A DNA stretch of 32,628 nt from Gemmatimonadales bacterium (GTDB lineage: Bacteria > Gemmatimonadota > Gemmatimonadetes > Gemmatimonadales > GWC2-71-9): contig JBFJHJ010000035.1 in assembly GCA_041613315.1 (NCBI GenBank), positions 1 through 32,628 of the forward strand. The letters are read 5' to 3'. A program made the position numbers. The number at the start of each line of letters is the position of its first letter. Positions within the stretch are counted from its first letter, which is position 1. Of the stretch, positions 3,001 through 21,000 are shown one piece after another.

Positions 3001-6000
3001 GATCGTGGCCGATGACGGCGGCGGCCAGGTCACGTTGAACGGCGGGAAGAGCTGGAGCACGTACTACAATCAACCGACGGCCGAGTTGTACGACGTCATC
3101 GTCGACAACGGCTTCCCCTACCGGTTGTACGGCGCGCAGCAGGACAACACGACCATCTCCGTGCCGGCCTGGTCGTCCGGCAACACGCTCTACCCCAAGG
3201 AACACTGGATCAATGTGGGCGGGTGCGAGACGGGGCCCATCGGGCTGCACCCCGATCACCCGGAGATAGTCTTCGCGGGCTGCTACAGCGGCGTGCTGGA
3301 TCGGACCGACCGCCGGCTCGGCCAGCGCCGCAACGTCATGCTGTATCCCGAGGTGCAGGTCGGCGAAGCGGCGCGGAATGTCCGCCACCGGTTCCAATGG
3401 GTGTCGCCGATCGTCGTGTCGCCGCACGACCCCGCTGTGGTGTACCACGCGTCGCAGTTCGTGCATCGCAGCACCGACATGGGCATGACGTGGGAGACGA
3501 TCAGCCCCGATCTCACGACCAACACCCCCGCGCATCAAGCCTACGCCGGCGGACCGATCAACCACGACATCACGGGCGTCGAGATCTACAACACGATCTT
3601 CTCCCTGGCCGTTTCGCCGCACGCCGCGGCCGTGCTCTGGGCGGGAAGCGACGACGGGCGCGTGCACGTCACCCGCGACGGCGGGGCGACCTGGACCGAT
3701 GTCACGCCCCGCGGCATGCCGCCACTCGGCACGGTCGACGAGATCGAGGTGTCGGCGCACGCGCCGGACCGCGTGGTGCTCGCGGTGCAGCGCTACCGGC
3801 TGGACGACTTCGCGCCGTACATCTTCCGCACGAACGACGGGGGACGGTCGTGGGAGTTGCTCACCGACGGGCGAAACGGCCTACCCGCCGACGTGCCCGT
3901 GCGCACCGTGCGAGAGGACCCCGAGCGCCGCGGCCTGCTCTACGCGGGGACGGAGTTTGGCGTGTACGCCTCGTTCGACGACGGCCGCACCTGGCAGTCG
4001 CTCCAGCTGAACCTGCCCATCACGCCCGTGACGGGGATGCGCGCCGCCCACGACGACCTCGTGATCGCCACCCAGGGGCGCTCGTTCTGGATCCTGGACG
4101 ACGTCACACCGCTCCGGCAGCTCACGGCGGAGGTTGCGAGATCCGCGGTGCATCTGTTTCGGCCGCGCGCGGCCCTCCGTGTCAACGCCGAGGGTTCGTC
4201 GGAGGAGTTTTCGCCGCAACCCCGGCCCGGGCCGGCGCTCGTGTCCTACTACCTGGCGCGCGCCGCGTCGACGCCGGTGACGCTCGAGATCCTCGACGCG
4301 TCCGGCGCCGTCGTGCGGCGCTTCAGTAGCGACTCGGCGGACGCGCGGCGAGCGAAGCTCGACACCATCCCCAGCGGCGCCGGCATGCACCGTATCGTGT
4401 GGGACCTCACCTATCCCGGCCCGAACACGCCGGATTCCCTCGTGGCGTGGGGCTATGCCGGGGGCGTGATCGCGCCGCCGGGGGCGTACCAGGCGCGGCT
4501 CACCGCCGAGGGTGCGGTGCGCACGCAGCCGCTGGAGGTCCGCCCGGATCCCCGGCTCGCCGACGTCACGCAGGACGACTTCGAGGCGCAGTTCGCCCTC
4601 GCCGTACAGGTGCGGGACACGTTGGACCGGATCTACGACGCGATCCGCGCGATCCGGGGCGTGCGGGAGCAGGCCGCCGCCATCGCGCGGCGCGTCGAGG
4701 GCGCGCCCTACGGCGTTAGGGTCCGTGCCGCCGCGGACTCGCTCGCGACGGCGCTGACGGCCGTCGAGACCGAGCTCACGCAGACGCGAAACCAGAGCAA
4801 CCAGGACCCCCTGCGGTTCCCGCCCAAGCTCGACGGCCAGTTCCTCGGGCTCTACGAGTACGTGACGGGGCCGGACAACTACCGCTTCGGAGGCGCCGAG
4901 GGCCGGCCGACTCCGGGCGCGGACGCCCGCCTTCGAGATCTCCTCGAGCGATGGGCGGGCCCGCGCGAGCGGTTCCGTGCGCTGCTCGAGACGGACGTAC
5001 TGGCGTTCAACGCGCTGCTCGCGCAGCTGAGCGTTCCCGGCGTGATCGTGCCGGCGGAGCGTCGGTGACGGGGCGACCGGCTACGGCGGAGGCGGGCGAT
5101 GGCGGACGCTGATCTCAAGACGCGGGTCGAGCGGGTGCGCCAAGATCTCGAGGCGATCGAGCGCGCCCTGGCCCAGGGAGCCGTGCCGCGGCGGATCCTC
5201 GAGGCGTTCAAGACCGCGGTGGACGATGTGCGGATCCACACCTGGGCGGCGCTCACGGGAGCCGAGGGATCGCCGGCGGGCCACGACTCGATCGTCGCCC
5301 AATATCGGCTGGGCCGCATGGTGGAGTTGTGCCAGCACGTCGTCCAGGACCTCGACGCCAGGCTGGTCCCACCCGGCCATGCCGGCCTGCTGGAGCTCCA
5401 GACAGGCGTCGAGCGGCTTCTCGCATCCATCAAGCGCGTGGAGTCCGGCCAGTAGCCGCCACCGCCACCGGCGGACATCGGTTCAGATGCGATGGACGAT
5501 TCGCGCGTCCGGCGCCCGCGCCCGGAGCACCTGCCGCGCCCGCTCCGGCGGAAGGAGGAAAGCTGACGTGGCCGCGGCGTCCGCCGTCAGGCACCGCTCG
5601 GCGACCACGGTCACGCTGCGGAGCCCGCCCAGCCGCGGGGCGGCCGTGGCCGGGTCGAGCAGGTGGTGGTAGCGCCGCCCGCGGTATGTGAAGTACTGGA
5701 GATAGTCCCCCGACGTCGCCACCGCCTGGTCGCTCGCCTCGAGCGTATCGACGATCCGCTCGGGGGCGTCCGGAGCGCGGATGCCGATGCGCCACGGCTC
5801 GCCGTGCTCCGCGTCGCCCAGCGCGTGGAGGTCGCCCCCCACGTTCACGAGGGCCTGCGTGATGCCCCACCGCCTGAGGGCGTCCACGGCGCAGTCCACC
5901 CCGTAGCCCTTGCCGATGCCCCCGAGATCGAGCGCGACGTCGGGGTCCGTGAAGCGGATGACGGAACGGCCGGCCTCCGCGTGCACGTCGGCGTGGCGGT

Positions 6001-18000: not shown

Positions 18001-21000
18001 CGGTTCTTGAAGATCCGATCCAGCTCCGGCACGGTGATCCCGTTCGCGTGGGTCAGCAGCTCCACCCGATCCGGGTTGCGCGCGGCCTCGTCGAACAGCG
18101 TCGGCGTGTACTGCGGGCAGCGTTGGAGGACCCGCACGAACGCGAACCCCCGGTGATGGAACGCCGCGCGCACGGTGGCGGCGAGGTGGGCCGGAATCCA
18201 ATCGGCCGTCTGCGCGACGAACGAGGCGTTCGTGACGCCCAGCGTGGCGGTGAGCGGATTCAACGCGGCGAGGTAACTGCCGTGTGGCTGGGTGTTGCTG
18301 GGAAACCCCTGGGGGGTGGTCGGCGACGTCTGATTCTTGGTGAGTCCGTAGATCTGGTTGTCGAGCAGGAGCGCCACGACGTTCGCGTTGTAGCGTGTCG
18401 CGTGAATCCAGTGTCCGGCTCCGATCGAGCAGCAGTCGCCGTCGCCCATCACCGCGAAGACGTGGAGCTCGGGCCGCGCCAGCTTGATGCCGATCGCGAC
18501 CGGCAGGGCCCGCCCGTGTATTCCGTGGAACCCATAGGTGTTGAGGTAGTGCGGGAAGCGGCTCGAGCAGCCGATGCCCGAGACGAAGACCGTGCGTTCC
18601 GGGGCGAGCTGCTCCTCGTCGAGCAGCCGTTCCACCGCCGTGAGCACCGCGTGATCGCCGCAGCCGGGACACCACCGCGCCACGGCGCCGGCGTAATCGT
18701 CCATCGTATAGCTGCGGTCCTCGTCCAGCCCGCAGTGCAGCAGGGAGCATCCCGTGGCGATCATGCAGCCGCTCCGTTCGGAAGGTTCGCGCGGATGGCA
18801 TCGCAGATCTCCGCCGGGCGTAACGGTTCGCCCGGCACGCGCGTCCAGCACTGGACGTCCACAAGGGTCTGGGCGCGAAGCAGCCACGCCAACTGGCCAC
18901 GGCGCCGGTTCTCGTCGGTGATGAACGGATCGTTCGGCTCGTCGCTGTAGTTGATCTCGACCGTCATCACCCGTGCAAAGCGCCGGAAGGTGTCTCGGAG
19001 GCCCGGCTCCATCGGTGACAGGAAGCGCACGTGGAGCGACGACACGGCCAGGCCGTCAGCTCGCGCGCGATCCACCGCTTCTTCGACCGCGCCCTTGGTG
19101 CTGCCCCACGCGACGACCAGCAGATCGCCAGTCTCGTCGCCATAGACCGTGGGCGGCGTCAGCGTCTGCTGAAACGCCGCGAGCTTGCGGCTGCGCATGG
19201 CGCACCCGCGCTGGTGCGCATCCGGGCTGTACGCGACGTGGCTGTCCTCGTCGTGCGCGAGGCCGGTGGCGGTGAACATCCCGCCAGCCTGTCCCGGGAG
19301 AATGCGGCGCGACAGGCCCAACCGGGGATCCCAGTCGTAGGGGCGGATGCCGTCGGGCGCGGGACTGAGGTCCAGCGGCGCGGCTTGCCAGCGCGGGTCC
19401 AGGCTGGGGCGGGGGAACGGCTGCACACCCGTGGCCAGGTTCGCGTCCGACAGGATGATGACCACGGTGCGGAACGCTTCGGCGATCCGCCGGGCGGTGA
19501 TGACGCAGTGGAAGCACTCCTCGATGGTCGCCGGCGCGAGGACGACGTGCGGCGCGTCCCCCGGCTGTCCGAAGATGGCCGCGAGGAGATCGGACTGCTC
19601 GACCTTCGTCGGGAGCCCGGTGCTCGGACCGCCCCGCTGGACGTCGATGACGACGAGCGGGATCTCGGTCATCACGGCGAGGCCGAGGAATTCGGTCTTG
19701 AGCGCGAGTCCGGGTCCTGAGGTCACGGTGAACGCCACCTGGCCGGCATAGGACGCGCCGATCGCGACACCCGCCGCGGCGATCTCGTCCTCGGCCTGGT
19801 GCACGACGCCGCCGAAGTCCTCGAAGATCTGGCCGAGATAGTGGGACACCGACGTCGCCGGCGTGATCGGATACATCGCGCACAACTCCATGCCCGCGGC
19901 GATGGCCCCCATCGCGATCGCCTGATTGCCGTTCATCACGACCATGGCCTCCTCGGGCGGCCGCGTCGGGACATCGATGCGCAGGTCGAGGTGTTCCTGG
20001 GCCCAGCGGTGTCCGAGGTCGAACAGCGCCAGATTGTTCTGCAGGATCTCCTCAGCTTTGGAGCCGAACTGCCGGGTGATCAGCTCTCTCGTCATGTGAA
20101 CGTCGCGACCGTAGATCGATGCCAGCAGGCCCAACACGAACATGTTCTTCCCGCGCCGCGGGTCTTCCACGACCGTGACGCACTGCTGCTCCATTGGGAT
20201 GCCGATGATCCGGTAGGACCGCGTGCCGAGCTCCTCCATCGCCGTGCGCCACGCCTGGCGGATCTCGGGGTCGTCGTGGCTCGCCCACAGGTCGTCGATG
20301 AGAATCACGGCGTCCGGCGCCAGCGCGTTCAGCCGATGGCGCGCCAGGAGCACCTGCTCGTTGAACGCGACGACGAGGTTGGCCGCGTCGCCCCAGTTGG
20401 TCACGGGCTGCGTACCGATGCGGATGCGATTGCCGCTGGCACTCGTGGGGGTGCGTGGCGGGGGCTGGATCTCCGCCGGGATGATCTCGACCGTCCAGAC
20501 CCCGTTCCCCATCCTGGCGGAGACGTTACCGAAGATCTGCCCACATTTCTGGGCCCCCTCCCCGGCGTCGGACACGATCTCGATCGTGTGCTCGGTCACG
20601 GTACGCACCGCGTCGGCAGCCGGCTCGGACGCCGGCGAATCGGCGGGGGCGGAGGATGGGTGCGGACGTACCGTCATCGTGTGCCTCGCGGGTTCGGCGC
20701 AGACCGTCCAGCACCGTTGCCGGCTGAACGCTGCCACCGTACCGCTTTGCGACGGCGCCGTCGGCTCATCAACCGACGCGCAGCGCCACGTAAGAGGGAA
20801 ACAGCACTCGCCGCCAACGAGCACGCAGACTCGCAAGCCTGCACCCCATTATGTAGGGCGCGCGGCGCGAGGACTCACTCAAGTTTTGGTGAAGGTTTCT
20901 TCAGAGGCTAGAGGGCATGGGACACCACCCCCCCGCGGTGGCGGGTCGCTCAGGACGTCACGCTGACACTGCCGTCCTTGCCGACCCTACTAGTCCTCGC

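Follow-up and report, generated by a model that had tools for sequence, protein, structure and literature searches.

In known Rnf systems the electron donor is a soluble ferredoxin, and the coupling of pyruvate:ferredoxin oxidoreductase (PFOR) to Rnf through this soluble carrier is textbook knowledge. The window analysed here, a stretch of 32,628 nucleotides from a Gemmatimonadales bacterium (contig JBFJHJ010000035.1), carries an Rnf operon that is interrupted by the gene of a giant PFOR-like enzyme and preceded by korAB. It raises the question of why two 2-oxoacid:ferredoxin oxidoreductases (OFORs) should be built into one Rnf unit, which a preliminary description had explained as a ferredoxin module for anaerobic aromatic catabolism.

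Organisation and conservation of the operon

The operon genes were found at the places first described, in the order korA-korB-X-rnfB-giant-rnfCDGEA-(59 aa)-apbE and all on the minus strand (Table 1). The 11 junctions between them measure -14 to +9 bp each, the start of X overlapping korB by 11 bp.

Table 1. Features of the operon, with positions in the window and model scores (bits) against cut-offs
Feature	Position	Strand	Description
korA	18761..20677	-	638 aa; alpha chain (domain order III-I-II) in a two-subunit 2-oxoacid:ferredoxin oxidoreductase
korB	17811..18764	-	317 aa; beta subunit; TPP site and proximal cluster ligands
X	16805..17821	-	338 aa; catalytically dead and eroded; paralogous to TPP-binding domain VI of the giant
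rnfB	15947..16795	-	282 aa; long polyferredoxin type; TIGR01944 78.7 > 68.7; PF04060
giant	10902..15950	-	1682 aa; single-chain OFOR
giant linker, residues 1550-1595	11166..11303	-	Ala/Pro-rich, disordered (pLDDT <50)
giant C-terminal single-cluster ferredoxin	10905..11144	-	C1611, C1614, C1617, C1653; PF13370
rnfC	9568..10893	-	441 aa; TIGR01945 515 > 246
rnfD	8564..9571	-	~335 aa; TIGR01946 307 > 207; TGAT flavinylation motif
rnfG	7875..8567	-	230 aa; TIGR01947 95, slightly < 102; PF04205; TGAT flavinylation motif
rnfE	7222..7878	-	218 aa; TIGR01948 226 > 213
rnfA	6644..7222	-	192 aa; TIGR01943 226, slightly < 229; PF02508
59-aa gene	6468..6647	-	hydrophobic N-terminus, Cys-rich tail
apbE	5483..6481	-	flavin transferase for RnfD/RnfG; PF02424 252 bits

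All six Rnf subunits are present, RnfA and RnfG having RnfA and RnfG as best match even though they fall slightly under the cut-offs that the other four exceed, and covalent FMN attachment is indicated by the TGAT motifs together with ApbE. Between rnfA and apbE the first gene list overlooked a conserved gene for a 59-aa protein, an ORF of this type following rnfA in 7/8 window-type and 5/5 Bacteroidota-type loci inspected. Its product has no Pfam match and is a possible Rnf maturation factor, perhaps NqrM-like.

Both the 672 relatives of the giant enzyme and the 79 loci first counted were recovered, while the six groups to which the family had been assigned proved too narrow a range, the family being far wider. 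Among window-type loci, korB, X and rnfB lie upstream of the giant gene in all 51 with at least 3.2 kb upstream, and rnfC adjoins it in 54 of the 56 with 1.5 kb or more of downstream sequence; in a Bacteroidota-seeded comparison rnfC adjoins it in 56/56. The term invariant is too strong, since L034 and L039 have inserts of ~7 kb, apbE lies between rnfG and rnfE in L038, L041, L080 and L083, and rnfG, rnfE and rnfA were not found in L024. The arrangement rnfBCDGEA is the gene order in Bacteroidetes and Chlorobi (PMC3534657), with the same six subunits and apbE alongside; here, however, a 5-kb OFOR gene splits rnfB from rnfC and korAB-X stands in front. The joined korAB-X-giant-Rnf arrangement was not found in the literature searched, and the main text of PMC10581226 holds 0 rnf matches, as already noted.

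The giant enzyme and its leashed ferredoxin

The giant enzyme consists of domains I-II-III, a domain V interrupted by a helical insert, a domain VI with helical inserts, a long helix, a linker and a ferredoxin. The order I-II-III-V-VI is that of the one-subunit PFORs from Moorella thermoacetica (6CIN; closest solved structure 6cin_A, E 3e-84) and Desulfovibrio africanus (1B0P), with which it also shares YPITP, the Glu, the Arg, GDG, YSNTGGQ and the cluster cysteines. YPITP, E78, R128, GGDG, YSNTGGQ and C1000/1003/1112/1316 are kept in 59/59 window-type sequences; the functions of individual residues are assigned after PFOR structures. Domains I, II, III and VI thus carry the TPP, substrate and proximal cluster residues of the OFOR superfamily, beside a two-cluster domain V, so that the full PFOR set of catalytic and cluster residues is accompanied by one ferredoxin on a disordered linker. 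In contrast with 6CIN and 1B0P, the giant is ~500 residues longer, has the helical inserts in V and VI, and bears the leashed C-terminal ferredoxin in place of domain VII. It falls, as had been described, far below the curated cut-off of the homodimeric, nifJ-type model TIGR02176 (381 bits, previously given as 382, against 911), and the EKR linker motif, the domain IV mark of homodimeric PFOR (PMC13768988), is absent at the aligned site and from the consensus of 97 sequences.

Only one of the extra ferredoxin domains formerly attributed to the enzyme exists, the other two 4Fe-4S motifs being those of an ordinary, helix-split PFOR domain V. In the giant model (pLDDT <50 in the linker) the linker sits between the long helix and the folded ferredoxin, which resembles D. 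africanus ferredoxin I (1dax, E 1.3e-5). This tail ferredoxin occurs in 56/59 window-type giants, the remaining 3 being truncated by contig ends, and in 115/115 Bacteroidota-type giants.

The substrate of the giant is most likely pyruvate, as indirectly suggested by the retained Thr/Arg/Asn set. Long-frame nifJ-type PFOR matches were found in 0/25 giant-positive and 18/125 giant-negative genomes (p 0.04, with kin that are not independent), an absence which fits this assignment. One characterised relative is possibly the two-subunit PFOR Mmc1_1741/1742 of Magnetococcus marinus, which is ~30% identical to the Moorella enzyme, lacks EKR, contains three clusters, and both oxidises and makes pyruvate (PMC12337175, PMC13768988). 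This lead is drawn by likeness of description, and Mmc1_1741/1742 differs from the single-chain giant in having two chains and three clusters only.

KorAB and the dead paralogue X

KorA scores 543 bits with TIGR03710 (cut-off 483), is closest to 6n2n_A among solved structures (E 1e-80) and carries the YPITP and QRGGPSTG motifs, while KorB has PF02775, scores 235 bits with TIGR02177, below the cut-off of 262, and matches 5b46_B and 6n2n_B equally (E ~1e-47). The alpha subunit starts with domain III, the beta subunit holds the TPP site and domain V is lacking, as in two-subunit OGOR/KorAB enzymes. The substrate is most likely 2-oxoglutarate, even though the broad-specificity 5b46/5b48 match KorB as well as 6n2n does. 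KorAB has the same alpha-beta build, with substrate motifs kept, as M. marinus OGOR (6N2N) and Thauera aromatica KorAB; unlike these, it has a dead PFOR-derived third gene next to it and lies outside a bcr cluster.

This third gene, X, had been described correctly as an upstream neighbour of rnfB but as an unknown protein, whereby the most telling feature of the operon was missed. X matches no Pfam or NCBIfam family and has 669 homologues. Its profile aligns with residues 1146-1367 of the giant by hhalign (Prob 86.5, E 4.6e-6, 154 columns; controls 0.26 for the reversed profile and 1.3 against KorB), and secondary-structure elements follow one order in the two models. With the X model (pLDDT 87) the ten best Foldseek matches were all PFOR, with a weak best E of 5e-3, and in a broad structural search PFOR came 26th, amid helical matches, with Z 7.2 and an rmsd of 5.4 across 153 residues. 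Two intermediate forms occupy the X slot. One, in L108, is 497 aa long and matches the giant at E 5e-30 and X at 1e-5; the other, in L129, is >1200 aa long (E 1e-36). The TPP/Mg loop is missing from the X alignment, and YSNT occurs in 0/267 and CxxC in 1/267 X homologues, the four cluster cysteines being lost from a protein that keeps homology and fold with OFOR beta subunits and domain VI. As judged from sequence, X is a catalytically dead remnant of the TPP-binding domain VI of the giant.

Operon variants

The giant with Rnf is a conserved core shared by thousands of proteins, cultured Bacteroidota included, and korAB-X is an add-on to it, present in 51/51 window-type and 0/31 Bacteroidota-seeded loci; X thus travels with korAB rather than with the giant. 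Bacteroidota-type operons include an FNR-like gene, which is a second sink for reduced ferredoxin. Further loci contain korA-korB-X(+ferredoxin) with no rnf nearby (L170, L172, L173) or active giants with tail ferredoxin and no rnf gene nearby (L177-179), indicating that the leashed ferredoxin needs no adjacent Rnf; split relatives of the giant occur in L178 and L180. In six loci (L166-169, L171, L174) the operon layout is kept while the proteins in both slots, X and Y, are dead. In this double-dead set the tail ferredoxin is the sole retained feature in 9/9 X proteins, and the dead Y has no tail ferredoxin and, in 5/6 cases, retains the two domain V motifs. The tail ferredoxin therefore occurs once per operon, and the iron-sulfur wire outlives catalysis.

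The separate occurrence of the modules, the erosion of X from >1200 aa down to 338 aa and its low conservation (38-54% identity, against 59-80% for its neighbours) would suit genes that are merely co-regulated and form no stable complex, X being a KorAB stabiliser, an oxygen shield or a slowly decaying relic. We regard this as quite improbable, given that X is retained in every one of those 51 loci with invariant residues across 85 homologues, that dead Y retains exactly the electron-transfer cysteines, and that a single tail ferredoxin is present per operon, on either slot. In a tree, window-type X stands apart from ferredoxin-bearing X on a very long branch, closer to dead Y, so that the X proteins may not all share a single origin and function; since the X of the window has no ferredoxin, the role proposed for it is confined to docking.

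Relation to benzoyl-CoA reductase

The reported co-occurrence with ATP-dependent benzoyl-CoA reductase (BCR) held up when more genomes were sampled (in family f1, 13/14 with the operon and 11/60 without). In the source phylum, class I BCR-like genes occur in 22/25 genomes with a window-type operon and 17/125 without (by genus 17/18 and 11/64), a stronger association than with nrfA (3/25 and 5/125) or NiFe hydrogenase (11/25 and 35/125). It persists when only the 40 genomes that have a strong hydrogenase match are compared (11/11 and 7/29) and in a second lineage (5/5 and 4/10; p 0.04). The source genome itself has a BCR cluster on contig C4 with bcrC-bcrB-two activases, enoyl-CoA hydratase-type genes and a had-like gene (TIGR03201 best, 248/339), that is, the two reductase, two activase, ring-hydration and ring-opening genes of class I. 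All four subunits score below their cut-offs (B 204/487, C 270/421, A 211/578, D 139/313), and by these scores the enzyme is a distinct subtype.

The operon might then mainly supply reduced ferredoxin to BCR, through KorAB and reverse Rnf, the giant perhaps taking an aromatic 2-oxoacid. Besides the association, KorAB of T. aromatica feeds BCR (PMC9973337), and korAB was found in 0/20 bcr regions from 19 operon-positive genomes, several of these regions stopping at contig ends; a small ferredoxin is likewise absent from them, whereas the operon-negative, Thauera-type cluster L196 has korAB or a small ferredoxin. However, korAB is also absent from all 14 operon-negative clusters of the source BCR type, no bcr gene occurs in any of 161 operon loci, and rnfC was not matched in 4/4 tested BCR-positive, operon-negative genomes (97-100% complete). 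Genera g15 and g16 have BCR with or without the operon, g11 and g38 have the operon without a BCR match, and no BCR match was found in 5/10 window-type genomes outside the phylum, for which completeness is not given. Furthermore, the double-dead type has no BCR link (2/9 against 31/191 genomes), and a ferredoxin on a leash would be better suited to private wiring than to serving a soluble reductase elsewhere. We consider this supply function unlikely: with a core that lacks korAB-X, loci without bcr, BCR without rnfC and an unlinked double-dead type, the operon often accompanies anaerobic aromatic-ring breakdown and is not dedicated to it. The preliminary proposal thus holds for the tracking of BCR by the window type but not for the purpose of the unit.

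Proposed mechanism

On balance we lean towards reading the operon as a membrane-bound, ion-pumping, hard-wired 2-oxoacid:NAD+ oxidoreductase, in which the leashed ferredoxin and the dead enzyme copy are the probable connectors of the two oxidoreductases to Rnf. The giant body, active or dead, adjoins rnfB/rnfC, and X always follows korB. We propose that the giant docks on RnfB via its domain V clusters and that its leashed ferredoxin would take the place of the soluble carrier, while X would bind KorAB and, opposite the giant, take the place of one half of a former PFOR dimer, a bridge by which KorAB may feed the same leashed ferredoxin. Rnf would reoxidise this ferredoxin with NAD+, pumping Na+ or H+. 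The hosts also own NAD-linked dehydrogenases (the source genome has five genes for E1 dehydrogenases as well as a SucA that scores above its cut-off), and the operon would serve anoxic periods. BCR, where present, would probably be one customer of reduced ferredoxin from a general-purpose core unit, which would account for the co-occurrence, although the BCR link in the source phylum is stronger than the ion-pumping oxidoreductase requires.

A wider proposal, to which we give slightly less than an even chance, is a large, undescribed class of respiratory supercomplex with a PFOR dimer as scaffold, comprising an RnfB-docked conducting half, a KorAB-recruiting half and one leashed ferredoxin serving all active sites, where either half could lose catalysis. 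The window would then represent two active oxidoreductases on one pump, an energy-conserving anaerobic stand-in for pyruvate and 2-oxoglutarate dehydrogenase that is able to power aromatic ring reduction and is present in cultured Gemmatirosa kalamazoonensis.

Reverse running, with Rnf powered by an ion gradient and reducing the leashed ferredoxin so that acetyl-CoA and succinyl-CoA can be carboxylated in anaplerotic reactions or the reverse TCA cycle, seems to us very unlikely. The carriers Gemmatirosa, Persicobacter, Flammeovirga and Cecembia, which we take to be heterotrophs, speak against it. OFORs are nonetheless reversible (PMC12337175), the nearest solved structure to KorA is the Magnetococcus enzyme 6n2n, and tubeworm symbionts carry rnf and kor genes in clusters with rTCA genes (PMC6315080). 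In the Riftia symbiont, according to the searched supplement file of PMC11636981, korA(3), korB(3) and a 'PFOR-like ferredoxin' on consecutive locus tags fall together as rTCA genes rise, again contrary to reverse running. By annotation and locus tags, this trio reads like korAB-X with ferredoxin, in keeping with the hard-wired reading; its PFOR-like gene is labelled there a 'possible PFOR' rather than an inactive adaptor, and the same file gave no rnf match.

If the hard-wired form with pseudo-enzyme adaptors is confirmed, it would be a new way of building a respiratory complex, would show how ferredoxin enzymes solve carrier specificity, and would provide an anaerobic energy route for supposed aerobes (Gemmatimonadota relatives and many cultured Cytophagia and Flavobacteriia). 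The gradation from the intact enzyme down to the X of 338 aa is a clean case of pseudo-enzyme evolution. The proposal is testable, since Gemmatirosa kalamazoonensis KBS708, which carries the full operon, and Persicobacter psychrovividus, which carries the core, are in culture.

Relatives of the giant include thousands of proteins labelled merely '2-oxoacid:acceptor oxidoreductase family protein' or 'hypothetical protein', an annotation that these results correct.

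Architecture of the operon

In the window all operon genes named in the preliminary description were found on one strand (see table): korA, korB, a gene for a 338-residue protein (X), rnfB, a gene for a 1682-residue single-chain PFOR-like enzyme (the giant), rnfC, D, G, E and A, a 59-aa gene and apbE. All 11 junctions from korA to apbE fall within -14 to +9 bp, and the arrangement is therefore read as one operon. A promoter and terminator scan gave no promoters and one terminator, on the other strand and at chance level. The 59-aa product is a membrane-anchored Cys-rich protein common to both operon types described below; it has no Pfam match and presumably resembles NqrM. 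A short charged ORF (~58 codons) lies ~310 bp upstream of korA.

A scan of named genomes reproduced the earlier figures of 672 relatives of the giant and 79 loci, and the nearest named relatives of the window carry the label Gemmatimonadota. The order had been called invariant, which holds for korB, X and rnfB upstream of the giant (51/51 window-type loci with enough upstream sequence) and nearly so for rnfC, adjoining the giant in 54 of 56, but not throughout: L034 and L039 have ~7 kb between giant and rnfC, L038, L041, L080 and L083 place apbE between rnfG and rnfE, and in L024 no rnfG, E or A was seen.

Coordinates of the features in the window and in the other stretches discussed
Feature	Stretch	Positions	Strand
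Universal stress protein	window	263-690	minus
BNR-repeat protein	window	1910-5068	plus
59-aa ORF	window	6468-6647	minus
rnfC, D, G, E, A, apbE	window		minus
Giant	window	15950-10902	minus
rnfB	window	16795-15947	minus
X	window	17821-16805	minus
korB	window	18764-17811	minus
korA	window	20677-18761	minus
Short charged ORF	window	about 20990-21165	minus
Amino-acid catabolism genes	window	26187-28677	minus
Amino-acid catabolism genes	window	28828-30462	plus
Amino-acid catabolism genes	window	22453-23670	minus
Amino-acid catabolism genes	window	21276-22200	minus
BCR-like cluster (L002)	own genome, contig C4	16400-25000	
Molybdopterin oxidoreductase	own genome, contig C10	60592-61860	
Second korAB pair (L003)	own genome, contig C28	16206-19101	
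Ferredoxin-NADP reductase-like gene	L084	22106-22960	
Orphan giant of genome G132	L165	8114-12613	

The PFOR-like enzyme

The giant aligns with Moorella PFOR (E 3e-84), and YPITP, E78, R128, GGDG, YSNTGGQ, both domain V motifs and the four proximal cysteines are kept in 59/59 sequences; the roles of the YPITP, E78, R128, GGDG, YSNTGGQ and cysteine residues we take to be those assigned from PFOR structures. It lacks the EKR motif and, as had been stated, stays outside homodimeric PFOR, scoring 381 against a nifJ-type cut-off of 911. In the predicted model of residues 760-1682 (pLDDT 84) domain V contains one helical insert and domain VI more than one; then come a helix of 50 residues, a disordered linker (1550-1595) and a folded ferredoxin, closest to D. 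africanus ferredoxin I (E 1.3e-5). This tail is present in 56 of 59 window-type giants, the other three being cut by contig ends, and in 115/115 giants of the Bacteroidota type. Thus, judged by its sequence, the giant appears to be a complete enzyme to which a single ferredoxin has been added, and not several as first described.

Pyruvate is favoured as its substrate because of the residue set and because long-frame nifJ-type matches occur in 0/25 giant-positive vs 18/125 giant-negative genomes. A role in place of the phenylglyoxylate oxidoreductase PadEFGHI was also considered and seems less likely: the PadG model gave 124/700 bits, below PorA, and none of the three genes scanned among the four molybdopterin-family genes of the own genome (83% complete) was PadB-like.

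The 338-residue protein

X had been described as unknown, and indeed no family match was found for it, although it has 669 homologues; as a profile, however, it matches domain VI of the giant over 154 columns (Prob 86.5, E 4.6e-6), the pairwise match being weak. The reversed control gave 0.26, the comparison with KorB 1.3, and the five other parts of the giant scored <2. In the alignment X has lost both the TPP loop and the cysteines; YSNT occurs in 0/267 homologues and CxxC in 1/267, and GDG is found somewhere in 42 of 267, the 12 commonest such strings being scattered and not conserved. X is thus best described as a catalytically dead version of domain VI of the giant.

Structural comparisons with the X model are fainter: PFORs fill the first ten Foldseek rows, with E values no better than 5e-3, and a wide search, filled with helical bundles and without any Z >=8, has 6cin residues 810-1170 only in 26th place (Z 7.2, rmsd 5.4, 153 aligned). 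An ESM Atlas search reached 0.87 at best, with AAA-type and hypothetical clusters that are no more than leads. Less eroded X-like forms follow korB in L108 (497 aa, E 5e-30 to the giant, same slot) and L129 (>1200 aa, E 1e-36). A search for longer forms, from which the long dead paralogues are too distant, returned only the 651-aa protein P0121, in which KorB is joined to X via a stretch that looks out of frame, the join being probably due to a sequencing frameshift or read-through. A domain VI tree of 45 rows gives no clear origin for the X of the window.

Core operon and its variants

The Gemmatirosa kalamazoonensis plasmid record carries the full operon, while that of Persicobacter psychrovividus reads giant-rnfCDGEA-small-FNR-rnfB, without korAB or X. 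With the second half of the Persicobacter protein as query, 5774 proteins matched among 8000 candidates, the weakest of which may include ordinary PFORs; Flammeovirga, Fulvivirga, Aquiflexum, Cecembia, Seonamhaeicola and Muricauda are among the 120 matches listed. In 80 metagenome loci seeded with this protein (the Bacteroidota type) rnfC follows the giant in 56/56 and korB with X precedes it in 0/31; L108, slightly below the length limit of the latter count, has korB and the X-like gene. The core is giant plus Rnf, and korAB-X is an add-on. In the Bacteroidota-type operons of L084, L086, L089, L093 and L100 a 285-aa ferredoxin-NADP reductase-like gene (PF00175) stands between rnfA and the downstream rnfB. 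The own genome has a second korAB pair (L003), 35% and 46% identical to that of the operon, with no X behind.

Further variants came from the phylum of G152, a record labelled Acidobacteriota (200 genomes, 20 with a domain VI match; 16 of 25 places examined). Six loci read (korA-korB)-X-rnfB-Y-rnfC, where Y is a paralogue in the giant's slot and both X and Y are dead (in L168 korAB lies beyond the stretch examined); three have korA-korB-X and three an active giant with tail, rnf being absent nearby in both sets, and the remaining four encode active but tail-less enzymes that are more distant. In the dead X proteins nothing but the tail ferredoxin is left (9/9); of the dead Y proteins, 5/6 retain both domain V motifs and 0/6 the tail. 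Each operon thus bears a single tail ferredoxin, carried either by X or by the gene on the Rnf side, and the cluster wire outlives catalysis. Inspection by eye of the neighbours of stand-alone korAB-X and giants revealed no evident redox partner.

In G132 (one contig, 99% complete) the giant ends before linker and ferredoxin, the genome has no rnfC match, and no korAB, X or rnf gene lies in the 20-kb stretch examined; this single tail-less case is possibly a deletion relic. In L178 and L180 relatives of the giant are split in two genes (938+747 and 661+530 aa), which recalls the Magnetococcus PFOR with its two subunits, although L178 could be a frameshift.

Association with benzoyl-CoA reductase

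The own genome carries a BCR-like cluster on another contig (L002), with no ferredoxin or korAB inside and all subunits below cut-offs. This subtype, below all NCBIfam BCR cut-offs, is nevertheless the commoner form in the window's phylum and also occurs in that of G152. In 150 genomes of the window's phylum (own genome left out; X in 25), 39 have BcrB-like genes. These belong to the own subtype in 29 genomes and are distant in 10; five of the latter were checked and all pass TIGR02260.

The reported co-occurrence is confirmed in this phylum: BCR is present in 22/25 operon genomes vs 17/125 others (own subtype only, 15/25 vs 14/125), in 13/14 vs 11/60 within family f1, 5/6 vs 1/25 within f2 and 17/18 vs 11/64 by genus; p-values overstate the link because kin are not independent. 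An anoxic habitat could by itself produce such a pattern, and the controls nrfA (3/25 vs 5/125) and hydrogenase (11/25 vs 35/125) are weaker than BCR; where the hydrogenase match is strong (40 genomes), BCR is present in 11/11 with the operon vs 7/29 without. NrdD is uninformative as a further habitat control, being confined in this sample to family f10 (9/9 genomes), none with operon or BCR; this family (G002-G024) has nifJ-type PFOR. In the class of G151, labelled Planctomycetota (15 genomes), the counts are 5/5 vs 4/10, two of the ten operon-negative genomes having only fragment matches to X.

The proposal of a ferredoxin-supply module for aromatic catabolism thus keeps its co-occurrence, but the operon is probably not dedicated to BCR, since bcr genes occur in 0/161 operon loci, rnfC is absent from 4/4 BCR-positive, operon-negative genomes tested, genera g15 and g16 have BCR without operon and g11 and g38 the operon without BCR match, and BCR is present in 2/9 genomes with dead-X modules vs 31/191 without (G353, a possible tenth carrier, counted negative). 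Five of ten window-type genomes outside the phylum have no BCR match, and korAB with ferredoxin was seen in 1/37 bcr regions (L196, in an operon-negative genome). BcrB had no match at 1e-30 in a plasmid collection, a negative that for Gemmatirosa and Persicobacter covers only their plasmids and not the chromosomes. Next to the bcr cluster of L202, L203, L204 and L208 is encoded a protein of 573-579 aa that has a ferredoxin motif at its C-terminus and looks IOR-alpha-like, a hint that benzoyl-CoA may derive from aromatic amino acids.

Proposed mechanism and host metabolism

We propose that the giant would dock on RnfB and that X, as its partner in what was once a dimer, may link it to KorAB, a pairing suggested because solved OFORs are all dimers according to section 3 of PMC13768988. 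Electrons from KorAB and the giant would pass to the leashed ferredoxin and on to NAD+, with ion pumping, and BCR may be an optional customer. Ferredoxin-Rnf coupling itself is known, and the operon is read as a variant of it. That no such arrangement is reported agrees with our searches, in which neither this operon nor a dead PFOR adaptor was described, in a literature that mostly excludes subscription journals; korAB-region gene maps (PMC6315080 supplements) may bear on novelty. Whether the operon represents a distinct class of supercomplex we leave as a tentative suggestion, with doubt slightly outweighing confidence.

No more than three OFOR alpha domains are encoded in the own genome, alongside SucA, four other E1 genes, nrfA and a hydrogenase, a content from which we infer a facultative anaerobe. 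One molybdopterin oxidoreductase contains one in-frame TGA and is possibly a selenocysteine enzyme. Beside the operon lie genes of amino-acid catabolism: in the four stretches of the table hutF is above cut-off, and acetylornithine deacetylase, amidohydrolase, sarcosine oxidase-like flavoprotein and haloalkane dehalogenase-like hydrolase are also assigned. Downstream of the operon are a 1052-aa secreted BNR-repeat (Vps10-like) protein and a universal stress protein.
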